Notes under the pieces: generated by a model
Told to the model about the DNA's origin: nothing
Databases searched by the model: none
The model's input: only the letters and a program-made list of their open reading frames with translations
Source of the DNA: Acidimicrobiia bacterium
Lineage (GTDB): Bacteria > Actinomycetota > Acidimicrobiia > Spongiisociales > ZC4RG35
Assembly (NCBI GenBank): GCA_033720975.1
Contig: JAWWBL010000002.1
Span: 1-47,514, forward strand
Direction of reading: 5' to 3'
DNA length: 47,514 bases
Program-made: the position numbers and the translations under genes
Shown: in pieces, positions 26,477 to 35,877 of the stretch
Position numbering within the stretch: position 1 is the first letter of the stretch
Layout: each line of letters starts with the position of its first letter

Positions 26477-26737
26477 TTGAATGATTTTCCGTTCCTGTTT
26501 CTCACCCGGGCTGGTTGTCATCTGTGTGAGGATGCGTGGCCGGTGGTGAGGGCTGCGGCCAAACGAGCCAGAGTGCGGATAGAAGCAGTCGACATCGAGC
26601 AGCGCGATGACCTGCTCTCGAGGTTCGTTTTGAGGATTCCGGTGGTGCTGGCGCCTACAGGCCGCGTTCTGGCAGAAGGTCGTATCGATGACCGACGGTC
26701 TCTGGCCAGGGCGATGAAGGACTCAAGCCCGGGTTAG
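26477..26737 (+). CDS. Glutaredoxin-like (thioredoxin-fold, DUF836-type) small protein
   Basis: 86 aa, TTG start. LFLTRAGCHLCEDA CxxC motif and later RIPVV, as in glutaredoxin-2-like proteins. The 3' end overlaps the convergent cytochrome c gene by 4 nt. Confidence 0.6.
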   Translation: MNDFPFLFLTRAGCHLCEDAWPVVRAAAKRARVRIEAVDIEQRDDLLSRFVLRIPVVLAPTGRVLAEGRIDDRRSLARAMKDSSPG

Positions 26738-27756
26738 CCGACTGGTGGCGGGGAGACCTTGGCCTCCTCGTCACCTTCGACCGGCATCTCGTCGGTTCCC
26801 CCGTCACCGGCGGTGTCGTCAGCGGGCGCTTCGACCAGGCCGCAGTCGACAACGGCTGTCTCAGGGTCTTCTCCACCGAACCGCACCCGTTCGAATGCTG
26901 CAACAGCGGCTATCTGCTCCTCCGTGAGGCTGGCAGCGAAGGCTGGCATTCCACCCCGGACCGTCTTGTTGGTGTCTCCGTAGGTTCCTCCTGCAAAGCC
27001 TGGAGAACCGAGTGTCACCCATTCGATGTGGTCGGTGCATGCTCCAAACGTGGTCAAGACCCCGGTCAGCGCCGGGAAGTTCCCGGCACCCTGACCGCTA
27101 CCCCCGTGGCAACCCGCGCAGTTGACACCGGCGACGGCTCCGCCTCCATATATCTCCTGACCGAGGGCTATGAAGTCCTGCCCTCCGCCTCCTACCGCCT
27201 GACCGGTGAATGCCGATCCGTCGCAGTTCACGATGTCACCCGTGACCACGTCGGCTCGCAACTCGGTTCCCTCGCCGCACGCTCCGGTGGTCGAGCCGCC
27301 CAAGGCGAACAAGGCGAACAAGGGAGCTATGAACAGGACGGAGGCGAGCCACCGCGGCATGCGGAAGTTGGTGCGCTCTCTGATGCCCGCTGTGGGGACC
27401 GTGATCACGTCCGGGAGGTTGACTGCTTCTGCTGCCGTCACCTCCGGAGGCACCGGGGCCCTTCCCACGGCCGCGGGTGTCGGGTCGGAAACGGCGGGAG
27501 TTGGCGCTGGTGCCGGTGCGGCGGATGGTGTGGGCATCTCCACTGTCTCTTCATGATCCGGTGATTCGGCCTCGGCCGGGGCGGGCTGTACTTGGCTCGC
27601 TGGCGACGGAGTGTCGAGAGGTGCTCCGCCGGCCCAGGCGGAGAGGATGTCCTCGACGCTTGCCCCCGTCTCGGCGGCTCGAGCCTCAGCCGAGCGTTGT
27701 GTGAGCGACTCGGGAATTCCAAGAGCTGCGGCGGCGGCGCTGAGGACATCGCTCAT
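26734..27756 (-). CDS. Membrane-anchored class I monohaem cytochrome c with conserved cytoplasmic N-terminal module
   Basis: From ATG 27756 (MSDVLSAAAAALGIPESL...): Pro/Ala-rich linker, TM helix, CAGCHGG haem motif, GGMPAF Met ligand, acidic tail. Confidence 0.8.
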   Translation of the reverse strand: MSDVLSAAAAALGIPESLTQRSAEARAAETGASVEDILSAWAGGAPLDTPSPASQVQPAPAEAESPDHEETVEMPTPSAAPAPAPTPAVSDPTPAAVGRAPVPPEVTAAEAVNLPDVITVPTAGIRERTNFRMPRWLASVLFIAPLFALFALGGSTTGACGEGTELRADVVTGDIVNCDGSAFTGQAVGGGGQDFIALGQEIYGGGAVAGVNCAGCHGGSGQGAGNFPALTGVLTTFGACTDHIEWVTLGSPGFAGGTYGDTNKTVRGGMPAFAASLTEEQIAAVAAFERVRFGGEDPETAVVDCGLVEAPADDTAGDGGTDEMPVEGDEEAKVSPPPVG

Positions 27757-27757
27757 G

Positions 27758-28507
27758 TCAGTTCCCATCGCTCTGGGATCGTGATAGATACTCGACGAGA
27801 GCCGACAAATCCTGGGGTGACAGAGAATGGGCCGGGTGGGTGCCGAGGCCGCCGACGATCGCCTCCAACTGGCCCGAGGTCAGCCTTGCCCCAACGTTCG
27901 CCAGATCGGGGCCAAACCTTCGTGTGCCCAACACCTGGTTCGAGTCGTTGAGCGTGACGTCTCCCAGGCCCACATCCGCGACGACAGGTCTCACCATCTG
28001 GGTGTGACATGCGGCACATCCAAGGCTCAGGTAGATGTCTCTGCCCTCGAGCGCCGTCTCGGAGTACGAGATCGCGCTCGTCCGGGCGCCTGGCTCGTCA
28101 GCGAGCGATGCCGGCCCGACGAGGCCTATCAAGGCGATGACTGCGAAGAGCCCGATCGCGCCCACCAGCACACCGACCGGATTGTCTTTTACCCCCACAA
28201 GGACAGGCGGCTTGTACCGGCCGACGGGGATCGGTGCCTCAGGCTGGGGGGTGTCCGGGACGGGGATGTCGATCACGGGAGCCGTGGTGACAGGTTCGGG
28301 ATCCGCAGCAGCCTCGTCCTCTTCGGGAGCCGTGGCTGCCGGTGAAGGCTCCTGTGTTGTCGCCGGCGGCGGCGCCCCGCCAGCCCAGGCGGAGAGGATT
28401 TCGTCGAGGCTCGCCCCGGTTTCGGCGGCGCGAGCTTCGGCAGATCGTTGGGTCAAGGACTCTGGTATGCCAAGGGCGGCGGCAGCGGCGCTGACCAGAT
28501 CACTCAT
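27758..28507 (-). CDS. CcoO-like monohaem cytochrome c (cbb3 oxidase subunit II homologue) with the same N-terminal module
   Basis: From ATG 28507 (MSDLVSAAAAALGIPESL...): TM helix, LEGRDIYLSLGCAACHTQMVRP and GTRRFGPDLANVG as in CcoO. Overlaps the upstream gene by 8 nt. Confidence 0.75.
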   Translation of the reverse strand: MSDLVSAAAAALGIPESLTQRSAEARAAETGASLDEILSAWAGGAPPPATTQEPSPAATAPEEDEAAADPEPVTTAPVIDIPVPDTPQPEAPIPVGRYKPPVLVGVKDNPVGVLVGAIGLFAVIALIGLVGPASLADEPGARTSAISYSETALEGRDIYLSLGCAACHTQMVRPVVADVGLGDVTLNDSNQVLGTRRFGPDLANVGARLTSGQLEAIVGGLGTHPAHSLSPQDLSALVEYLSRSQSDGN

Positions 28508-29975
28508 CGTCGACCCCCTTGGAGACGAGCAGTTCCTGTGTCGTGGCCTTCCCGCTGGTGATGGTGCCGAGGACGACGGACGCGTAGGCGAGGTGACCGA
28601 GAAGAGTGACGATTGCAAACAACGCACCGAGAAGCAGAAGGGTGTCCGCGGTAGCGCCCACGCCCGCGCCCCATCCTTCGCCAAAGTCGGCGTAGGCCGC
28701 GGAGTTACTGCCGGCCGTCCACGAATAACCCGTCACCGCACCTGCGGTCGCGAGTGTCACCAAAGTGCCCACAGAACCGACGAGTGTGTACCTGACAAAG
28801 GACCGGACCCGATCACCGGAGTGAATCTCCCGGCCGACAAGCCGAGGAAGAGCCGACAGTGACGTGGCGGCTACGAGCAGGGCCCCAACCCCTGCCATCC
28901 AGGCGATTTCGATTCCCTCCCAGAATGACGTGAGAGCGGTCACAGCCGCTGCGGACCGGAAACCGGCGACAGCTGCAAGGGCCGCAACGATCGCGGCCAA
29001 GTAGAGACCGATGACGCCGGCACGTACCCCGTGGTTAGTCCCAAGATCGCCCCACGACCCCTCGAGGGTCAAAGAGACATTGGCGGCGTTTGCAAGTGCG
29101 GCCACGGGAAGCGCGAGTCCCAGTGCCGCAACGACCCCGGATATCCAATCTGGCCCCGGGCCGAATGTCAGTTGAGCCAGGCCCCACCACACGGAGGCGA
29201 AGCCCAGAGACCAAAGACCGACAAGGGCGAGCTGTCGGCTCGCAAGCGGAGCATCGAGCTCCTTGACCACCGCGTAGTAGAGAAGCCCAGTTCCCAGCGT
29301 GAGCAGCACCATCGTGACCATTCCGCCCGACACGAACATGTCGACGTATGCGACCTGGACCGCCTCGAGAAGGGGCAGATGGCCCACCAGGTTGGCCAGG
29401 AAGAGAAGAGGCATCCAGACCGTCCCGGCGATGACGAACCAGACTGTGACATAGCTGCGTGGCTCAGTCCTGACAGCGATCGTTCGAAGGGCTGTCAGCG
29501 CGGGAATGGACAATGTGCCCAGCATGGGGATGTCGAGCCACCACGGAAGACCAAAGGGCTGCCGGCCGGAGCCAAAGCCAAAACCTATCGCCACGACGCC
29601 GGCCGTCACTATGCCAGCCATGCCCAACAAGCCCAGACGGGCCAGGCCGGTGGAGGAAAGTCGGGCCCCGGTGAGCCGAGGGAGCACGTAGTAGACGCCA
29701 CCGACTAGTGAGATCACACCAAAGCCGATCACCAGGGAGAGGTTGGCCATCGGTTCCACGCGGCCGAAGGAGACGGGGATCAGGTCCCCGAACCTCAGCG
29801 CCACCAGTGACAAAACCGAGAGGAGGCTGCCCAATATGAGAAAGACTGCACCAACCACGAAGTGGCTGACGGCTAACCGATCTTCGCCGGCTCCTCCGCC
29901 GAGCAGCGTTCGGATGTCAGTTGTCTCGGTCTCGGCCAACGGTCTCCCCGCGGATGATGGGACGGCGGGGAGCAT
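28500..29975 (-). CDS. CcoN-fold (haem-copper oxidase subunit I-like) membrane protein lacking the canonical His ligands
   Basis: 491 aa, multi-TM. Segments SFGRVEPMANLSLVIGFG, GLLYYAVVKE and FGPGPDW parallel CcoN signatures, but only 5 His are present and none is in an HH or HxH arrangement. Confidence 0.65.
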   Translation of the reverse strand: MLPAVPSSAGRPLAETETTDIRTLLGGGAGEDRLAVSHFVVGAVFLILGSLLSVLSLVALRFGDLIPVSFGRVEPMANLSLVIGFGVISLVGGVYYVLPRLTGARLSSTGLARLGLLGMAGIVTAGVVAIGFGFGSGRQPFGLPWWLDIPMLGTLSIPALTALRTIAVRTEPRSYVTVWFVIAGTVWMPLLFLANLVGHLPLLEAVQVAYVDMFVSGGMVTMVLLTLGTGLLYYAVVKELDAPLASRQLALVGLWSLGFASVWWGLAQLTFGPGPDWISGVVAALGLALPVAALANAANVSLTLEGSWGDLGTNHGVRAGVIGLYLAAIVAALAAVAGFRSAAAVTALTSFWEGIEIAWMAGVGALLVAATSLSALPRLVGREIHSGDRVRSFVRYTLVGSVGTLVTLATAGAVTGYSWTAGSNSAAYADFGEGWGAGVGATADTLLLLGALFAIVTLLGHLAYASVVLGTITSGKATTQELLVSKGVDDE

Positions 29976-30110
29976 AACTTGTCGGTGGATCGAACCTCAT
30001 TACGACCAGACCGCAAGCGCATCCGGGCAGCGACGGGTTGCCGCCGCGAGTCGTTCGTGTGGTAGAAACGCTCCTACAAGCAAACCGACCCGGGCCACTA
30101 CCAAGGAAAC

Positions 30111-30740
30111 ATGTACCGCCTCGCGGAACTCACCGACAGCCGACGAAAGCTCATTGGTGCGACCCTGCTCGTTTTGGGGCTCGTTGGGCTGGCTCTTGCA
30201 GTGTTTTGGATCCATTGGTCTTCGTACCCCGAGACAGAGCTCGTTGACGGGGTAGCGGTGCCGTACGTGGTGGATCACTTCAACTGGTTCCCTCGCGGAG
30301 CTTTGTGGAAGGGGATCGGCTACTTGATCGCGGGTGGCGCCGCGACCTTCGCAATGATCGGAGCTGCATTCCTATGGGTCCTGAATCAGAAGATGACATG
30401 GGCCCGCGCCACGATCGCCGCGATGATCGCCTGGTTTGCTCTCGTTTTCTTCTTTGGCATTGTCCCGTCAGAATGGCTCAACTTCGCACAGACGGACCTC
30501 GAATGGGGCAACGATCCGGCCATCACGATTCCTCCGTTCCTCGTGCTTGGCAACGAAGTCTCCCTCAGTTGGGCGGCGATCAAGGACTCGATCTCGATGG
30601 GATATCACCTGGTCATGCTCGGAGTGGCAGGGGCCCTCGCCATCGGGATCCAGAAGATGAAGGACGGACGGCCTGCCCACAAACAGCCTGACGCGCTCAC
30701 TTCTCCCTACGGCAGGCCTTTGGTGAAGGGCGAGCGCTGA
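30111..30740 (+). CDS. Multi-pass membrane protein, first gene of the Rieske/cytochrome b operon
   Basis: 209 aa, AAGGAA upstream of the ATG, 4-5 hydrophobic segments. Its stop overlaps the start of the ferredoxin-type gene. Confidence 0.6.
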   Translation: MYRLAELTDSRRKLIGATLLVLGLVGLALAVFWIHWSSYPETELVDGVAVPYVVDHFNWFPRGALWKGIGYLIAGGAATFAMIGAAFLWVLNQKMTWARATIAAMIAWFALVFFFGIVPSEWLNFAQTDLEWGNDPAITIPPFLVLGNEVSLSWAAIKDSISMGYHLVMLGVAGALAIGIQKMKDGRPAHKQPDALTSPYGRPLVKGER

Positions 30741-31189
30741 TGCCTAAGGGAGTCGTCGATGAGACGCCGCCGATCCGCGATGACTATCAGCTCGCCCTCG
30801 TGGAGGGTGACTACTTCAAGGACAAGCTCAGGCCAAAGCAGTTCCTCCACATCGACCAATCGGAGTGCATCCTTTGCGAAGGGTGTGTGGACATTTGTCC
30901 TTGGAAGTGCATTCACTACCTGTCGCTTGACGCCATAGACGAAGCAGTCAACGTCGACCATCCGGCCGAGGACGGTCAGAACCTCGGGTTCTTCATCGTT
31001 GACGAAGACGAGTGCACACGCTGTGCGCTCTGCATCGACCGGTGCCCGACCAATGTCATCACGCTGGGCAAGTTCGAGGGCTCTCTCGCGGATCAAGCCG
31101 GACAATTGGGTCTTGACCGCCGGCCGTGGGACTTCGACACAGGACAGCGTGACTTCAAGAACGGTTACTCGTACGGTATGCGGTGGTAG
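30740..31189 (+). CDS. 2x[4Fe-4S] ferredoxin-type protein
   Basis: 149 aa with two CxxCxxCxxxCP motifs (CILCEGCVDICP, CTRCALCIDRCP) and no TM segment. Confidence 0.8.
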   Translation: MPKGVVDETPPIRDDYQLALVEGDYFKDKLRPKQFLHIDQSECILCEGCVDICPWKCIHYLSLDAIDEAVNVDHPAEDGQNLGFFIVDEDECTRCALCIDRCPTNVITLGKFEGSLADQAGQLGLDRRPWDFDTGQRDFKNGYSYGMRW

Positions 31190-31201
31190 GGCGAGGTAGG
31201 A

Positions 31202-31990
31202 ATGGCTAACGGAAACGACAAGACCTCTCTCCGCGAGAGGATCGGCGAGAAGGTCGGAGAGACGACCGAGAAATTGTGGAAGTCTCAACTCGCCGAAGCG
31301 ATTCTGCGTCCCGGCTCACCGTTCAAGCAGGGCTATTCGGACAGCCCGCGCAACCGCTCATATGTCGTCATGAACAACGTGCTCTATCACCTCCACCCGG
31401 TCAAGGTGAAGCGTCACGGCGTCAAGCTCTCCTACACCCTCTGCCTCGGCGGGCTGAGTTTCTTCTTGTTCATCCTCTTGACGATCACGGGCATCTTCCT
31501 GATGTTCTATTACACACCTACCGCCGAGTTGGCCTATGCCGACATCGAACGGCTCTCGACGGATGTTGCCTTCGGGTCGCTGGTCAGGAACCTCCACCGC
31601 TGGGGCGCCCATCTCATGGTCCTGTCGGTCTTCCTGCACATGAGCCGGGTCTTCTACCACGGCGCCTACAAACCACCTCGAGAGTTCAACTGGGTCATTG
31701 GCGTGATCCTTCTCTTCCTCACGCTGCTGCTGTCATTCTCGGGCTACCTACTCCCCTGGGACCAGCTGGCCTTGTGGGCCGTGACAGTCGGAACCAACAT
31801 GGCCGGGTTCGTCCCTGTCGTCGGGTCCCAGGTGAAGTTCTGGTTCCTGGCAGGCGTGGAGGTGAGCGGCGCGACGCTGCTTCGCTTCTATGTGCTCCAC
31901 GTTCTCGCGTTCCCCTTCATCATCGTGATATTCATGGCAGTCCACTTCTGGCGTGTCCGCAAGGACGGCGGGATATCCGGGCCTCTTTAA
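31202..31990 (+). CDS. Cytochrome b6-type protein (N-terminal four-helix half of cytochrome b)
   Basis: 262 aa. Haem ligand pairs in [11 protein letters not shown] and VLHV...[17 protein letters not shown] (LPWGQ-like), and TLCLGG matching the YCLGG haem-ci Cys context. Confidence 0.85.
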
Positions 31991-32000
31991 GGAACATCGA

Positions 32001-32951
32001 ATGGTTGAGATTCCAGAAGACCTGTTGAGGAGATCGGCCGAGGCCAAGGCCAAGGCCCTTGGCGTCCCGGTTGAAGACGTCTTGGCCGAGATGAAAGGGG
32101 AGGGCCCGCCGGTCGAGGTCCCACAACCCGAGCCGGTTGCAAAGCCGGCGGCCGGTGAGTCGACGGACGAAGAGATGCCGGTCGAAGAGGCCGGGACGGT
32201 CTCGTCACTTGAAGAGCCGGAGTCAAAGGGCGCCGGCTCCGAGCCTGACATGACCCCTGAGCCTGCTGATCCTGGGGATGTCGAAGCCTCCGAGACGGAG
32301 CCCGCATCCTCTGTAGCGACGATGGAGGCCCCGCCCCCGGCCGGCGACGGCAATGGCTCTGGAAACGGCAAGGTGGCGACTTCGGTCACGCCGCGACCGA
32401 CCGCCAGCCCCGCAGGCCTGCCCGAAGGGGTCAGGACCCAGCGGCTGCTGACCGTCGTCAAAGCTCGGGCGATTCAGGACGTCAAGACCGAGCCGCAGGA
32501 CAAGGTCAACACTTGGCCTCACCTGATGCTGATGGAGTTCGGCGCGCTGCTTCTCATAACGGGGCTCTTGATCATCATGTCGGTCGTCATCCACTCGCCC
32601 CTCCTCGACCCGGCCAATGTCAACGCGACCCCGAACCCGTCCAAAGCGCCCTGGTACTTCCTGGGGCTCCAGGAGCTTCTGTCGTACTTCGATCCGCAGA
32701 TCGCGGGGGTGACGATCCCGACCATCACTGGGATGATCGGCTTCATGATGGTCCCCTTCGTCGACAAGAACCCGTCCAACCGCCCATCGGATCGGAAATT
32801 CGCCATCGTGTTGTACACGATCTTCCTGGCCGGCTCGGCGACGCTCACGATCTTCGGGGTTTTGTTCCGGGGCAAGGGTTTCAACTTCTCTTATCCGTGG
32901 AAGGACGGGATCTTCTTCGATGACTTGAAAGACTGGGTGCACTTCGAGTGA
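32001..32951 (+). CDS. Subunit IV-type protein (C-terminal half of cytochrome b) with N-terminal module and acidic linker
   Basis: From ATG 32001 (MVEIPEDLLRRSAEAKAKALGVPVEDVLAEM...): about 150-aa acidic/Pro-rich linker, then three TM helices with SKAPWYFLGLQELL (PEWY-type motif). Confidence 0.8.
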   Translation: MVEIPEDLLRRSAEAKAKALGVPVEDVLAEMKGEGPPVEVPQPEPVAKPAAGESTDEEMPVEEAGTVSSLEEPESKGAGSEPDMTPEPADPGDVEASETEPASSVATMEAPPPAGDGNGSGNGKVATSVTPRPTASPAGLPEGVRTQRLLTVVKARAIQDVKTEPQDKVNTWPHLMLMEFGALLLITGLLIIMSVVIHSPLLDPANVNATPNPSKAPWYFLGLQELLSYFDPQIAGVTIPTITGMIGFMMVPFVDKNPSNRPSDRKFAIVLYTIFLAGSATLTIFGVLFRGKGFNFSYPWKDGIFFDDLKDWVHFE

Positions 32952-33826
32952 CGTTCACAAACACGATCCTGATCGCCGTCGCCCTTTTTGCCATCCTCGC
33001 CGCGGCTGGTGCCTTCACGATTGCCTTCCGCCGCGCCAGGAGCGAGCGGCCCTCCGATCCGACCGACGGGGTTTCTGCCGAGACCATTAAGGCAGACCGG
33101 TCGATGGAGGGGGTCGAGGTCGTCGCCGTGGAGCCCGAGCCCGAGGCTGACGTCGTCCAGTCGGTCGAGGAGGGCGACGAGGAGCCGCAGCTGGAGCCGG
33201 CGGGCGTCGGCGTTGCCGTCATCGAGGAACAGCGGATTGTCGAAGTGACCCCTGAAGAGGGCGGCGTGACCCGCAGACAGTTCTTCAACAGGGCGATCAC
33301 CGCAACTTTCGGATCGTTCATGGGGCTGATGGGCCTGTATTCACTCGTCTTCACCTGGCCGAAGCTCTCGGGCGGGTTCGGGACTGACGTCGACGCAGGT
33401 GAGCTCGGCGAGGTTCAGGGCTCGGTGTTCGCTGCCGACGGGTCGATCCTGCCGCTGTTCGTCCCGGAGGCGAGGGCATACGTGGTTCCCTCCCCGACGA
33501 ACCTCTCGAAGCAGTTCGAGGGTCGGAGGGTGGAGGCCGGAGGGCTCATGGCGCTGTTCCAAAGATGCGTTCACCTGGGTTGCCGTGTCCCGTGGTGCGG
33601 GCCGTCCCAGGGATTCGAATGCCCGTGCCACGGTTCGAAGTACAACTCGATTGGCGAGTACTTCGCCGGGCCCGCTCCCAGAAACCTCGACCGTTTCGAG
33701 GTCGAAGTCGTCGGTGGCCGATTCATCATCAAGACCGGCTCGATCGTCGAGACTCCGCGGGCTTCGGCGCTCTCATCGGCGTATCCGAGGGGGCCGAGTT
33801 GTATTGGCGCGACCGCTGAGGCTTAG
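32948..33826 (+). CDS. Rieske [2Fe-2S] protein
   Basis: 292 aa, GTG start overlapping the previous stop. CVHLGC and CPCHGS cluster motifs, plus an internal twin-arginine motif TRRQFFNRAI after an N-terminal TM helix and acidic linker. Confidence 0.85.
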   Translation: MTFTNTILIAVALFAILAAAGAFTIAFRRARSERPSDPTDGVSAETIKADRSMEGVEVVAVEPEPEADVVQSVEEGDEEPQLEPAGVGVAVIEEQRIVEVTPEEGGVTRRQFFNRAITATFGSFMGLMGLYSLVFTWPKLSGGFGTDVDAGELGEVQGSVFAADGSILPLFVPEARAYVVPSPTNLSKQFEGRRVEAGGLMALFQRCVHLGCRVPWCGPSQGFECPCHGSKYNSIGEYFAGPAPRNLDRFEVEVVGGRFIIKTGSIVETPRASALSSAYPRGPSCIGATAEA

Positions 33827-33829
33827 AGC

Positions 33830-35518
33830 GTGACCTCGAACATCATCACAGTTCTGGCCATCGTCGCCGGGATCACCTGGCTTGGGGTTCTCCTGGTGGC
33901 GGCGATCCGGAACCGCGGGAGCGAAGAGGTCCCTTCCAACATTCGCCCAGGTATCGATGACCAGCAGCTTGAGACACGGCGCCTGGAGTCCGGCCAGAAG
34001 GCGGCCATCGCCGCGTCGGCTTTCCTGGCCGTCTCTCTCCCTCTCTATTTCCTCAGCGAGCCGAGCCGGCAAGAAGGGTTTGTCGAGGAGTTTGCACATG
34101 CCTCTGAGGAGCGCGGAGAGCATCTGGTCGAGGAGTTCGCCTGCTTCTCGTGCCACGGCCCTCTCGGAGCTGGCGGCTCTGCCTCGTTCGTCGAGAAGCG
34201 GTCCGGTGTCACCGTGTCCTGGGAGGCGCCCGCTCTCAACGACGTCCTCTACCGATACGACGAGGACGAGCTCAACTTCTGGATCACCTTCGGCCGTGGG
34301 AACACCCCCATGCCCGCTTGGGGGCTCGCCGGCGGTGGCCCCCTCAATGAGGCTCAGGTCGTTGACATCGTCAACTACCTGAAGACGATCCAGATCCCGC
34401 AACAGGAAGCTGCCGCCAAGGCAGCCTCCCAGGTCGATATTCAGATCTCGCGCTTGAACAACGCCGAAGCGACGGTCGAAGAGGCGATCCTCAACCAGCG
34501 CCAGGTTCTCGCCGAGATAGCCCAGGCGCCGGCCGACGCACTGTTCGTTGGGCCCCTGGCTGTTCGCGCCCGGGATCTTCTCGACGCTGCCGCCACCGGA
34601 ATCGACACCGACGACGACGGCCTCTCGGATGCGGTCGAGGCCGAGCTGTCGTTGATATCCGCTGAGGCCTATGACTACTTCCAGGGGATCGAGCCGGTCA
34701 CCCTCGATCCCGAGATTGCCGACAACGACCTGCTCGTATCGGCAATGGCACAGCTCGAGGAGGGGGCGGATCAGGACCCGATCTTGGGTCAGTACCTAGC
34801 TGCCGTCGAAGCCATTCTCGAAGGCCAGGACCTGACGAGCGATAGCGATGGTGACGGGATCTCCGATGAGGCAGAGGCGGCCATTTCGGGCCAGTTGGCC
34901 GAGGCTTCCCGTGCGACGATCCCGGCCGGGATAGCGGTGGTGAGTCTGAGCCCGACCAGCACGGAGTCAGTGCCCGACGTGTCCGACAGGGCCACTGCCA
35001 CCCGTCTCGTCGGCGGGCTCGAGTCAGTTGCCATAAACACATCCGTTGCCGCGGAGAACTTCGACAAGCTCTTCAACCAAGAATCTGCCGGGCTCACTTT
35101 CCTGCTCGACGCCCAGCGGGCCAGGGCGTGGCATGTCGACATCGCAGGGGTGGCTGATTCGATGGGAGTCGGTGAGGAGGAGGCCGAGAGGGCAGTGGCG
35201 CTCTTCAACGCAAACTGCGCCCGCTGCCACACGGCCGGTTTCAGCGCAGGCGTGCCTTACACCCAGGAGATCGGATCGGGTGGGTTCGGCCCGGCGCTGT
35301 GGGATGGCCGGCCCGTCGTCCAGTTCGGGGAAGCCGCCGATCCCGAGGAGGACCTCCTCATCCAATTCCTGATAAGAGGCTCGGAGGCACAGAAGCCTTA
35401 CGGCCTCAATGGGTTCGGCTCGGGGCGGATGCCCGCATTCGGGGCGGTCCTTTCCCAGGAGGACATCGCGCTGCTTGCCCTGTACCTTCGTAGTGGCAAC
35501 TTGAGCGGAGTTGAGTAG
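33830..35518 (+). CDS. Membrane-anchored dihaem cytochrome c with large inter-domain insertion
   Basis: 562 aa, GTG start, N-terminal TM. CFSCH (aa 105-109) with TPMPAW, and CARCH (aa 463-467) with GRMPAF. About 260 aa separate the two haem domains. Confidence 0.8.
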   Translation: MTSNIITVLAIVAGITWLGVLLVAAIRNRGSEEVPSNIRPGIDDQQLETRRLESGQKAAIAASAFLAVSLPLYFLSEPSRQEGFVEEFAHASEERGEHLVEEFACFSCHGPLGAGGSASFVEKRSGVTVSWEAPALNDVLYRYDEDELNFWITFGRGNTPMPAWGLAGGGPLNEAQVVDIVNYLKTIQIPQQEAAAKAASQVDIQISRLNNAEATVEEAILNQRQVLAEIAQAPADALFVGPLAVRARDLLDAAATGIDTDDDGLSDAVEAELSLISAEAYDYFQGIEPVTLDPEIADNDLLVSAMAQLEEGADQDPILGQYLAAVEAILEGQDLTSDSDGDGISDEAEAAISGQLAEASRATIPAGIAVVSLSPTSTESVPDVSDRATATRLVGGLESVAINTSVAAENFDKLFNQESAGLTFLLDAQRARAWHVDIAGVADSMGVGEEEAERAVALFNANCARCHTAGFSAGVPYTQEIGSGGFGPALWDGRPVVQFGEAADPEEDLLIQFLIRGSEAQKPYGLNGFGSGRMPAFGAVLSQEDIALLALYLRSGNLSGVE

Positions 35519-35520
35519 GG

Positions 35521-35877
35521 ATGTTCAGAGAGTTCTTCAGATCGCTGCTCTCAGCGAACCTGTTCGTCACCGGTATCGTGCTGACGCTCGCCGCCGTGCT
35601 TCTGTTCTACGGATCGATCTACCTGTTCAACCACACGAATCTGGGCCGTCGACTGGCCCTCCTGGTCACCGGCGCCTCCATCTTCGGGTGGATGACCATC
35701 ACATCGCTGCTGTTCGTCATCTACGCGCCCCGTGGCCCGAAGCCCGACAACATCGAAGGTCTCAACGCCTTCGAAATCCGCGTGATCCCGTTGACCTTCC
35801 TCCTGGTCTCTTTGGTCCTCTTTCTCGTTTTCGTCGTCGCACTCCACCAATACGAGTCGACGCGAGAACCCGACTAG
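35521..35877 (+). CDS. Small three-TM membrane protein, last gene of the Rieske/cytochrome b operon
   Basis: 118-aa ORF starting 2 nt after the cytochrome c stop, with three hydrophobic segments. Confidence 0.55.
   Translation: MFREFFRSLLSANLFVTGIVLTLAAVLLFYGSIYLFNHTNLGRRLALLVTGASIFGWMTITSLLFVIYAPRGPKPDNIEGLNAFEIRVIPLTFLLVSLVLFLVFVVALHQYESTREPD

Follow-up and report, generated by a model that had tools for sequence, protein, structure and literature searches.

An acidic ferredoxin-like protein and an orphan membrane protein conserved beside b6-type cytochrome b in Actinomycetota: candidate subunits of a menaquinol:cytochrome c oxidoreductase

In this study, we analyzed a stretch of 47,514 nucleotides from an Acidimicrobiia bacterium (positions 1 to 47,514 of contig JAWWBL010000002.1, assembly GCA_033720975.1; hereafter the window), which contains an operon for a b6-type Rieske/cytochrome b complex. 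Its seven genes encode, in this order, an orphan membrane protein with four transmembrane (TM) helices (hereafter the 4-TM protein), a small ferredoxin-like protein with motifs for two [4Fe-4S] clusters (hereafter Fdx), cytochrome b6, subunit IV, a Rieske protein, a dihaem cytochrome c and a small membrane protein. The first two of these products are the main subject of this report. The source assembly is a 2.0-Mb metagenome-assembled genome (MAG) which is 82% complete. Proteins closely homologous to those of the operon likewise bear Acidimicrobiia names. A genome search detected one cytochrome b in it, the b6-type protein of this operon (31202–31990). Elsewhere in the MAG, an A-family COX1 (521 bits) and a separate NuoI-like gene were found, and both MenA and MenB exceed their cut-offs. 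Considering COX1, MenA/MenB and the single cytochrome b, the organism looks like a menaquinone-using aerobe whose sole complex III is encoded by this operon.

All seven genes are located on the forward strand. The 4-TM gene (30111–30740, 209 amino acids) is preceded by a ribosome-binding site, AAGGAA, 5' of its ATG at 30111, and its stop codon TGA (30738–30740) shares one base with the start codon of the Fdx gene (ATG, 30740–30742). The resulting TGATG (30738–30742) is exactly the coupling of a ferredoxin-type gene to a 209-amino-acid membrane-protein gene which had been described in a first-pass annotation of this DNA. The Fdx gene (30740–31189, 149 amino acids) ends with TAG and is separated by a 12-nucleotide spacer containing GAGG from the ATG of the cytochrome b6 gene (31202–31990, 262 amino acids; PF00033, E = 1.4e-49). 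The genes for subunit IV (31953–32951, PF00032), the Rieske [2Fe-2S] protein (32948–33826, PF00355), the membrane-anchored dihaem cytochrome c (33830–35518, 562 amino acids; PF13442 and PF00034 in two stretches each, plus TSP3_bac) and a 118-amino-acid small membrane protein without Pfam or NCBIfam match (35521–35877, the last gene of the operon) follow, packed with overlaps or gaps of a few nucleotides. The start of subunit IV is ambiguous, being either GTG at 31953, which overlaps the cytochrome b6 gene, or ATG at 32001. Since the PF00033, PF00032 and PF00355 genes lie directly downstream of Fdx, its earlier placement inside a Rieske/cytochrome b operon is borne out. Upstream, the operon is divergent from a CcoN-like gene on the minus strand; the intergenic region between them (29976–30110) is presumed to contain the promoter, and a promoter scan found no sigma-70 consensus within it.

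Fdx contains the cluster motifs CILCEGCVDICP and CTRCALCIDRCP, which correspond to the two CxxCxxCxxxCP motifs previously noticed at this position in a soluble-looking protein. The Pfam family Fer4 matches it in two stretches (E = 3.6e-12), and only Fer4 families were matched. Neither a hydrophobic segment nor a twin-arginine signal was found in Fdx, and therefore the protein should be cytoplasmic. The family is acidic (median isoelectric point 4.5, net charge −11). Multiple alignments revealed that the eight cluster cysteines (Cys), a ninth Cys (Cys57) in a C-P-W-x-C motif, F85, D88 and R101 are invariant, and that long extensions beyond the ferredoxin core are conserved at both the N- and C-terminus. 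The codon of Cys57 (30908–30910) directly follows the first cluster motif. This residue is common to four of the five flavoprotein domains of the type-B operons described below and is absent in NuoI-type proteins; it could serve as a third cofactor ligand, as an inter-subunit ligand or as a redox switch.

Databases name Fdx proteins 'NuoI' or 'PreA'. Neither name is justified: the match to the NuoI model TIGR01971 reaches 42.2 bits, far below its cut-off of 113, and the neighbors of Fdx are bc-complex genes. A better NuoI-like locus (83.8 bits) is present on another contig (C110). A sequence search of solved structures with Fdx returned generic polyferredoxin, NuoI and HdrA repeats only, and no bc-complex relative. 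In the literature searched, neither the small Fdx nor the 4-TM gene of these operons is described.

The 4-TM protein has no match in Pfam or NCBIfam. Its AlphaFold2 model predicts four TM helices (mean predicted local distance difference test score (pLDDT) 90, predicted template modeling score 0.78), and both termini are placed in the cytoplasm based on the positive-inside rule. Fold searches with this model gave nothing in the PDB at E ≤ 0.001 using Foldseek, and generic helical hairpins only (best Z 7.6) using VIA-align wide; no fold was assigned. An exhaustive HMMER search indicated that the family is small (83 representative clusters). It appears to be restricted to Actinomycetota, as the nearest Atlas clusters all belong to that phylum and are all labeled 'hypothetical protein'. 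Alignment revealed the conserved motifs TWxxA, G-[IV]-[VI]-P-x-x-W-L, L-x-W, K/R-D, W-Q-K and a tail S-x-Y-G-R-P-L-V-K, among which the periplasm-side V-P-x-x-W-L...L-x-W and the extreme C-terminal tail are best kept. In Acidimicrobiia the tail reads S-x-Y-G-R-P-L-V-K; most other lineages have G-G-Y-K/R. We also searched for the haem-attachment families CCB1 (PF12046) and CCB2/CCB4 (PF11152), which have no match in the 209-amino-acid protein or anywhere in the 82%-complete genome; this absence is not diagnostic, because a Bacillus subtilis control likewise has no match.

Cytochrome b is split over two genes in this operon, a 4-helix b6 and a subunit IV with three TM helices. The haem-ligand histidines (His) of cytochrome b6 show the b6 spacing, those of helix B being 14 residues apart (L-H-R-W...F-L-H-M) and those of helix D 15 apart (V-L-H-V...A-V-H-F), and its C-terminus is of the b6 type. 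It carries the motif Y-T-L-C-L-G-G, whose CxGG is present in 17 of 17 sequences of type A, the operon type of this window (see below). This agrees with the haem-ci Cys context (T-L-C-L-G-G) which the earlier annotation had reported. The protein begins with a basic and conserved cytoplasmic extension of ~55 residues containing Y-H-L-H-P-V-K-V, the net charge of which ranges from +6 to +12 in the 17 type-A sequences (+6.8 in the window). Cytochrome b6 exceeds the cut-off of the NCBIfam model NF040969 (ExtP), with 298 bits against 290. An identity with the ext system of Geobacter (selenite/tellurite) was rejected: ExtQ reaches 51.8 bits against a cut-off of 150, and the operon has no multihaem or porin genes, which in the ext cluster comprise the porin ExtI and the multihaem ExtKL/M/N/S beside the rhodanese ExtH, with no ferredoxin (PMC5877670). 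The ExtP match reflects a shared cytochrome b clade only, and the label is a likely source of misannotation across the actinobacterial clade.

Subunit IV has a cytoplasmic N-terminal extension of ~180 residues, and its Qo motif is A-P-W-Y rather than PEWY or PDWY, which assigns the complex to the APWY clade of PMC4122944. The Rieske protein contains the boxes CVHLGC and CPCHGSKY, in agreement with CxHxGC and CxCH. The Ser..Tyr pair in the second box is a high-potential signature: in the rule quoted in PMC3509893, S..Y corresponds to about +300–350 mV and G..Y/F to about +120–160 mV. In the dihaem cytochrome c, the two haem domains are separated by an acidic insertion of ~260 residues, which includes the bacterial TSP3-repeat match; in more distant type-A loci, the c subunits are far shorter.

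To define how widely Fdx accompanies cytochrome b, 301 genomes of the phylum were searched with the membrane protein, Fdx and PF00033, and the counts given here refer to published genomes only. Among the matches listed, 68 published genomes, which represent many GTDB families, have a type-A Fdx match a few hundred nucleotides upstream of cytochrome b, on the same contig and strand, and no counter-example was listed. We fetched 23 type-A loci representing ~18 GTDB families, and found the order [small membrane protein]–Fdx–cytochrome b6–subunit IV–Rieske–cytochrome c–[small membrane protein], Fdx being present in 21 of the 23. A set of 80 named Acidimicrobiia loci gave a similar picture: Fdx is followed by a CxGG-bearing cytochrome b6 in 78, and the other two end at contig edges. 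The recurrence of this operon order is far beyond chance. The first-pass annotation had proposed that conservation of the ferredoxin-type gene next to cytochrome b in relatives be checked, and these three sets of loci answer in the affirmative. Carriers identified by exact look-up include Egicoccus halophilus, Euzebya pacifica, Ilumatobacter and strain IMCC26256, and loci of Ca. Actinomarina also carry the operon.

Within the operon, Fdx ranks second in conservation. Over the 80 loci, the median identity to the window is 81% for cytochrome b6, 77% for Fdx, 66% for subunit IV, 64% for the 118-amino-acid protein, 56% for Rieske, 45% for the 4-TM protein and 44% for the dihaem cytochrome c, indicating that the constraint on Fdx is nearly that on cytochrome b6. 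The 118-amino-acid protein likewise closes the operon in 59 of the 80 loci (all those in which the flank was reached) and in a majority of the distant loci, and is probably a further subunit. Using tblastn, a match to the 4-TM protein was found somewhere in all 80 loci, ending ≤150 nucleotides upstream of the Fdx match in 78, and all type-A loci inspected have a gene for a cognate small membrane protein on the upstream side. Outside Acidimicrobiia, the G-G-Y-K/R tail of this protein is kept in 10 of 12 Fdx-bearing loci and is gone in both type-A loci without Fdx, and sister genomes in the family of these two loci retain both the tail motif and Fdx. This pattern hints that the tail serves Fdx, and it stems from only one or two events.

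Comparative analysis of Actinomycetota revealed three operon types. Type A is the operon of this window, and type C has the classical order, the Rieske gene followed by the cytochrome b gene, and contains no Fe-S gene. Type B was detected in five genomes, one of which belongs to the same order as the window. Its gene order is flavoprotein, cytochrome b6, subunit IV, Rieske and cytochrome c, and the flavoprotein, a product of 600–700 amino acids, combines Fer4_20 and Pyr_redox_2 (a GltD/NfnB-like flavin adenine dinucleotide (FAD)/NAD(P)H module) with a C-terminal dicluster domain. The flavoprotein gene abuts cytochrome b6 in four of the five loci; in the remaining one (L105), the dicluster match is located ~1.8 kb upstream of the cytochrome b6 match. 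The dicluster domain is 49% identical to the Fdx core over 76 residues, with 34–48% across the five loci, and has the extra Cys in four of the five. Type-B cytochrome b6 is ~50% identical to that of type A and is without the CxGG Cys. The 4-TM protein and CxGG are both found in type A and neither is found in type B; this suggests a possible relation of the 4-TM protein to haem ci, as a subunit near the Qi pocket or as an attachment factor. Type-B operons of other Actinomycetota (L102, 2316–8539; L103, 2654–6468; L104–L106) encode a monohaem cytochrome c, and in L102 the operon is followed by a gene for a 741-amino-acid protein with a sulfocyanin-like cupredoxin domain. Types A and B occur together in several genomes.

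These types are also reflected in phylogeny and in residues of the redox subunits. In a maximum-likelihood (ML) tree of the b6 domain, types A and B are separated from type C with support of 100/99, and type B forms one long-branched clade beside or inside type A. Of the 22 type-A Rieske sequences, 21 have CPCHGSxY as box II (the remaining one, CPCHASAY, comes from L018, which lacks Fdx); this box has S..Y/F in all five of type B, and is CPCHGGxY/F in all nine of type C. In addition, types A and B, unlike type C, have a conserved N-terminal His in cytochrome b6, which belongs to the motif [LY]-H-x-[HY]-P-x-K-[VI] and precedes the CxGG position by 18 residues.

Based on these observations, we lean towards the view that Fdx and the 4-TM protein are extra subunits of a menaquinol:cytochrome c oxidoreductase, in which they would form an electron branch on the cytoplasmic (n) side. 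What the comparisons above provide is gene content, synteny, homology, conservation and residue signatures, from which we infer docking as well as the flow of electrons and the direction it takes. Cytochrome b6 (probably with haem ci), subunit IV, Rieske and the dihaem cytochrome c would constitute one b6-type enzyme. The acidic Fdx may dock on the n face of the cytochrome b6 dimer, on the basic N-terminal extension of cytochrome b6, and the cytoplasmic C-terminal tail of the 4-TM protein probably helps to hold it there. Bound in this way, Fdx could carry electrons between the low-potential haems (bH/ci) and the cytoplasm, perhaps via an extra haem on the conserved His63 pair. The arm formed by Fdx might then be a cut-down version of the Fe-S/flavin arm of anammox complexes, having retained the dicluster module but not the NAD(P)H/FAD module. 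In the absence of the latter, we propose that electrons are exchanged with a dissociable cytoplasmic partner.

The first-pass annotation had likewise suggested electron entry or exit on the n side, next to haem ci. The n-side part gains from the retention of Fdx beside cytochrome b6 and from the homology of its core to the dicluster domain of an NAD(P)H flavoprotein. A specific tie to haem ci is not supported: type B has the same Fe-S module and a cytochrome b6 without the CxGG Cys, so that the Fe-S module is independent of haem ci. The likeness to bifurcating bc-type complexes which had been drawn at the same time fared better, as the type-B flavoprotein, in the same operon position, matches the architecture of the anammox complexes (PMC12954380). 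The label 'low-potential' given to Fdx is an assumption.

The direction of flow can be considered from the energetics. The combination of menaquinone with a high-potential Rieske protein would make the potentials of the b chain very negative, as has been argued for anammox bacteria, and the S..Y signature in a menaquinone organism fits a b-haem chain of very low potential. An electron entering such a chain would be strongly reducing and could reach [4Fe-4S] clusters, so that electron exit, i.e., bifurcation, is conceivable on thermodynamic grounds. The sequence data agree just as well with the opposite route, in which electrons enter towards haem ci/Qi in the manner of ferredoxin-dependent cyclic flow. 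The opposite charges of Fdx (−11) and the cytochrome b6 extension (+6 to +12) were counted in favor of docking.

Several points weigh against the subunit proposal. Opposite charges of this sort are to be expected between nearly any ferredoxin and any loop on the n side. Fdx is small, has no catalytic domain, and no partner gene for it is present in the operon. Two type-A loci of one family (G164 and G229) have no Fdx gene, while their cytochrome b6 and membrane protein are apparently intact; at least one lineage can therefore do without Fdx. The single-chain AlphaFold2 model of Fdx is unusable (pLDDT 42, from a 42-row alignment). The S/Y rule for the Rieske potential is empirical, and the equivalence of His63 to His43/His62 of the anammox proteins is putative. 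Rosetta-stone fusions do not help either, since the 28 longer proteins are mostly frameshift read-throughs from error-prone MAGs. In P0457, P0458 and P0464–P0469, the conserved tails of the 'fused' products are replaced by out-of-frame Arg/Pro-rich text. Only P0460 looks like a clean in-frame read-through from Fdx to cytochrome b6; it is a singleton and was not used as evidence.

Three other roles were weighed. Fdx might be a dedicated soluble partner, expressed together with the complex, which docks transiently at the n side and carries electrons to or from haem ci/Qi, like the ferredoxin of cyclic flow. Its lack of a membrane segment and its strong acidity, a property of soluble ferredoxins, would suit such a carrier, as would its absence from two otherwise intact type-A operons, and synteny alone cannot separate a bound from a transient protein. 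We nevertheless consider this role unlikely, given that Fdx is almost as conserved as cytochrome b6 and has long conserved terminal extensions beyond the core, and that the related type-B module is part of a large subunit. In the anammox complexes, moreover, the corresponding subunit is placed on the n side in AlphaFold3 models, and the Kuste4569–4574 subunits comigrate.

It is also quite unlikely, in our opinion, that the 4-TM protein acts, alone or together with Fdx, as an assembly factor, e.g., for covalent attachment of haem ci at the cytoplasmic face or for cofactor insertion into cytochrome b6 or Rieske. The co-occurrence of the 4-TM protein with the CxGG Cys (both in type A, neither in type B) points in this direction, and no CCB1 or CCB2/CCB4 homolog was found in the 82%-complete genome; B. 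subtilis is likewise without a CCB match, and if the haem of its b6-type cytochrome is covalent, another attachment route must exist. However, types A and B differ through one evolutionary event only, the homologous Fe-S module is also found beside a cytochrome b6 lacking the Cys, and few assembly factors rank second in conservation among the products of their operon. Finally, Fdx could be a bound subunit with no electron through-route, serving as a structural cap or as a redox/oxygen sensor and representing a remnant of an ancestral flavoprotein arm. The lack of a catalytic domain and of a partner gene would be explained in this way, Fdx has been lost in one family, and, with type B nested in or beside type A, both gain and loss of the flavin module fit the tree. 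A passive role of this kind seems improbable to us, as neither the ninth Cys nor any of the eight cluster ligands varies across a very deep divergence, and the high-potential Rieske signature, which co-varies, suggests an energetic role.

Returning to Fdx and the 4-TM protein as subunits of an n-side branch, a more specific and rather doubtful possibility is that the complex is a quinol-based electron-bifurcating enzyme of aerobic menaquinone-using Actinobacteria. The Rieske/cytochrome c/aa3 branch would pull one electron from menaquinol and thereby drive the second via the b haems to the bound [4Fe-4S] clusters, perhaps with an extra inter-monomer haem on His63 in the path, and the product would be a cytoplasmic reductant at the level of ferredoxin. 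If this is true, a widespread oxygen-linked source of low-potential electrons would exist in very abundant marine and freshwater lineages such as Ca. Actinomarina, acIV and Ilumatobacter, which have this complex as their only complex III, and a tractable aerobic model would become available for a mechanism which has been proposed and never shown in anammox bacteria.

The operon bears on two wider questions, namely whether carriers of the ferredoxin type can pass electrons to or from b6-type complexes at the n side (known from cyclic flow as the 'FQR' problem) and whether quinol bifurcation in Rieske/cytochrome b complexes can yield low-potential reductant, as proposed for anammox. It offers a minimal natural form of an n-side link of this kind, a dicluster protein inherited with cytochrome b6 in aerobic and partly cultured Actinobacteria in which this is the sole complex III. 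The dissection into three operon types, the correlations with the Rieske signature and the His, the co-loss of the tail motif and the conservation ranking are new here, and two database names, 'NuoI' for Fdx and 'ExtP' for cytochrome b6, are corrected.

On the other side of the divergent intergenic region lies a minus-strand trio encoding CcoN-like (28500–29975), CcoO-like (27758–28684) and cytochrome c (26734–27768) proteins. The CcoN-like protein scores 99 bits against a ccoN cut-off of 583. Its divergent pairing with the operon was observed in every one of the named Acidimicrobiia loci having a CcoN-like match (74 of 80), and was not observed in other classes. We considered whether the 4-TM protein and Fdx could be a split CcoG/FixG-like copper reductase for these adjacent cbb3-like genes; this idea was set aside, since the pair travels with cytochrome b6 where the CcoN-like neighbor is absent. 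tblastn cross-matches also revealed that the N-terminus of subunit IV (31953–32135) contains a short module, I-P-E-x-L-x-x-R-S-A-E-A..., common to two cytochromes c of this neighboring cluster, encoded by the minus-strand genes at 27768 and 28684. The copy in subunit IV is on the cytoplasmic side, as is Fdx.

Among known systems, the closest comparison is with the anammox complexes Kuste4569–4574 and Kustd1480–1485 of Kuenenia stuttgartiensis, which share with this operon a split b6-type cytochrome b with subunit IV and an Fe-S protein gene inside the operon. Kuenenia combines menaquinone with a Rieske protein whose high potential was measured (+303 and +335 mV; PMC12954380), and the same combination is predicted here from MenA/MenB and S..Y. 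AlphaFold3 models of the Kuenenia complexes place an NAD(P) oxidoreductase subunit on the cytoplasmic face, with four Fe-S clusters leading to FAD, and contain an unexpected haem b between the two cytochrome b monomers, ligated by one His from each (PMC12954380). All subunits of Kuste4569–4574 comigrate in complexome data, according to work cited in PMC12954380. A flavoprotein architecture like that of type B has been described for Kuste4570/Kustd1483 (PMC12954380), so that the combination of Fer4_20, FAD/NAD(P) and dicluster domains is shared with our type-B relatives; this likeness is a match to the published description. In contrast to anammox, the window operon encodes only the dicluster module (149 amino acids) with no FAD/NAD(P) domain, a dihaem rather than a hexa- or octahaem c subunit, and a subunit IV with three instead of five helices, plus the orphan 4-TM protein. 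The hosts differ as well, being aerobic heterotrophs for which this is the only complex III.

NuoI/TYKY of complex I resembles Fdx in its 2x[4Fe-4S] fold and similar size, but Fdx is not encoded in a nuo operon and falls below the NuoI cut-off. The b6f complexes of cyanobacteria and chloroplasts and the b6c complexes of Bacillus and Heliobacteria share with the window complex the split cytochrome b, the 14/15 His spacing, CxGG, the C-terminus R-K-x-G-I-S-G-P-L and the 3-TM subunit IV, and the dihaem c is as in Heliobacteria. Unlike the window operon, b6f and b6c operons encode no Fe-S protein of the Fdx kind, and ferredoxin is a free carrier there. Further differences of the window complex are APWY in place of PEWY/PDWY, the order b6–IV–Rieske, the ~55-residue N-terminal extension of b6 and the lack of PetG/L/M/N or CCB homologs. 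A functional analogy is offered by the proposed access of ferredoxin/FNR to haem ci in cyclic flow.

With respect to the covalent haem, the Bacillus b6-type cytochrome was reported to carry one by Yu and Le Brun (1998), as cited in PMC4122944. That paper (Kao and Hunte 2014) also defined the APWY clade, which includes Ilumatobacter among the actinobacterial split cytochromes b and, as noted there, had no characterized member; reverse operation was proposed for the clade, and neither Fdx nor the 4-TM gene is mentioned (PMC4122944). In the genome analyzed here, by comparison, the operon encodes the sole cytochrome b and stands beside an aa3-type oxidase, which argues for forward quinol oxidation. 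This sole-complex-III context argues that the APWY clade is not purely reverse-running.

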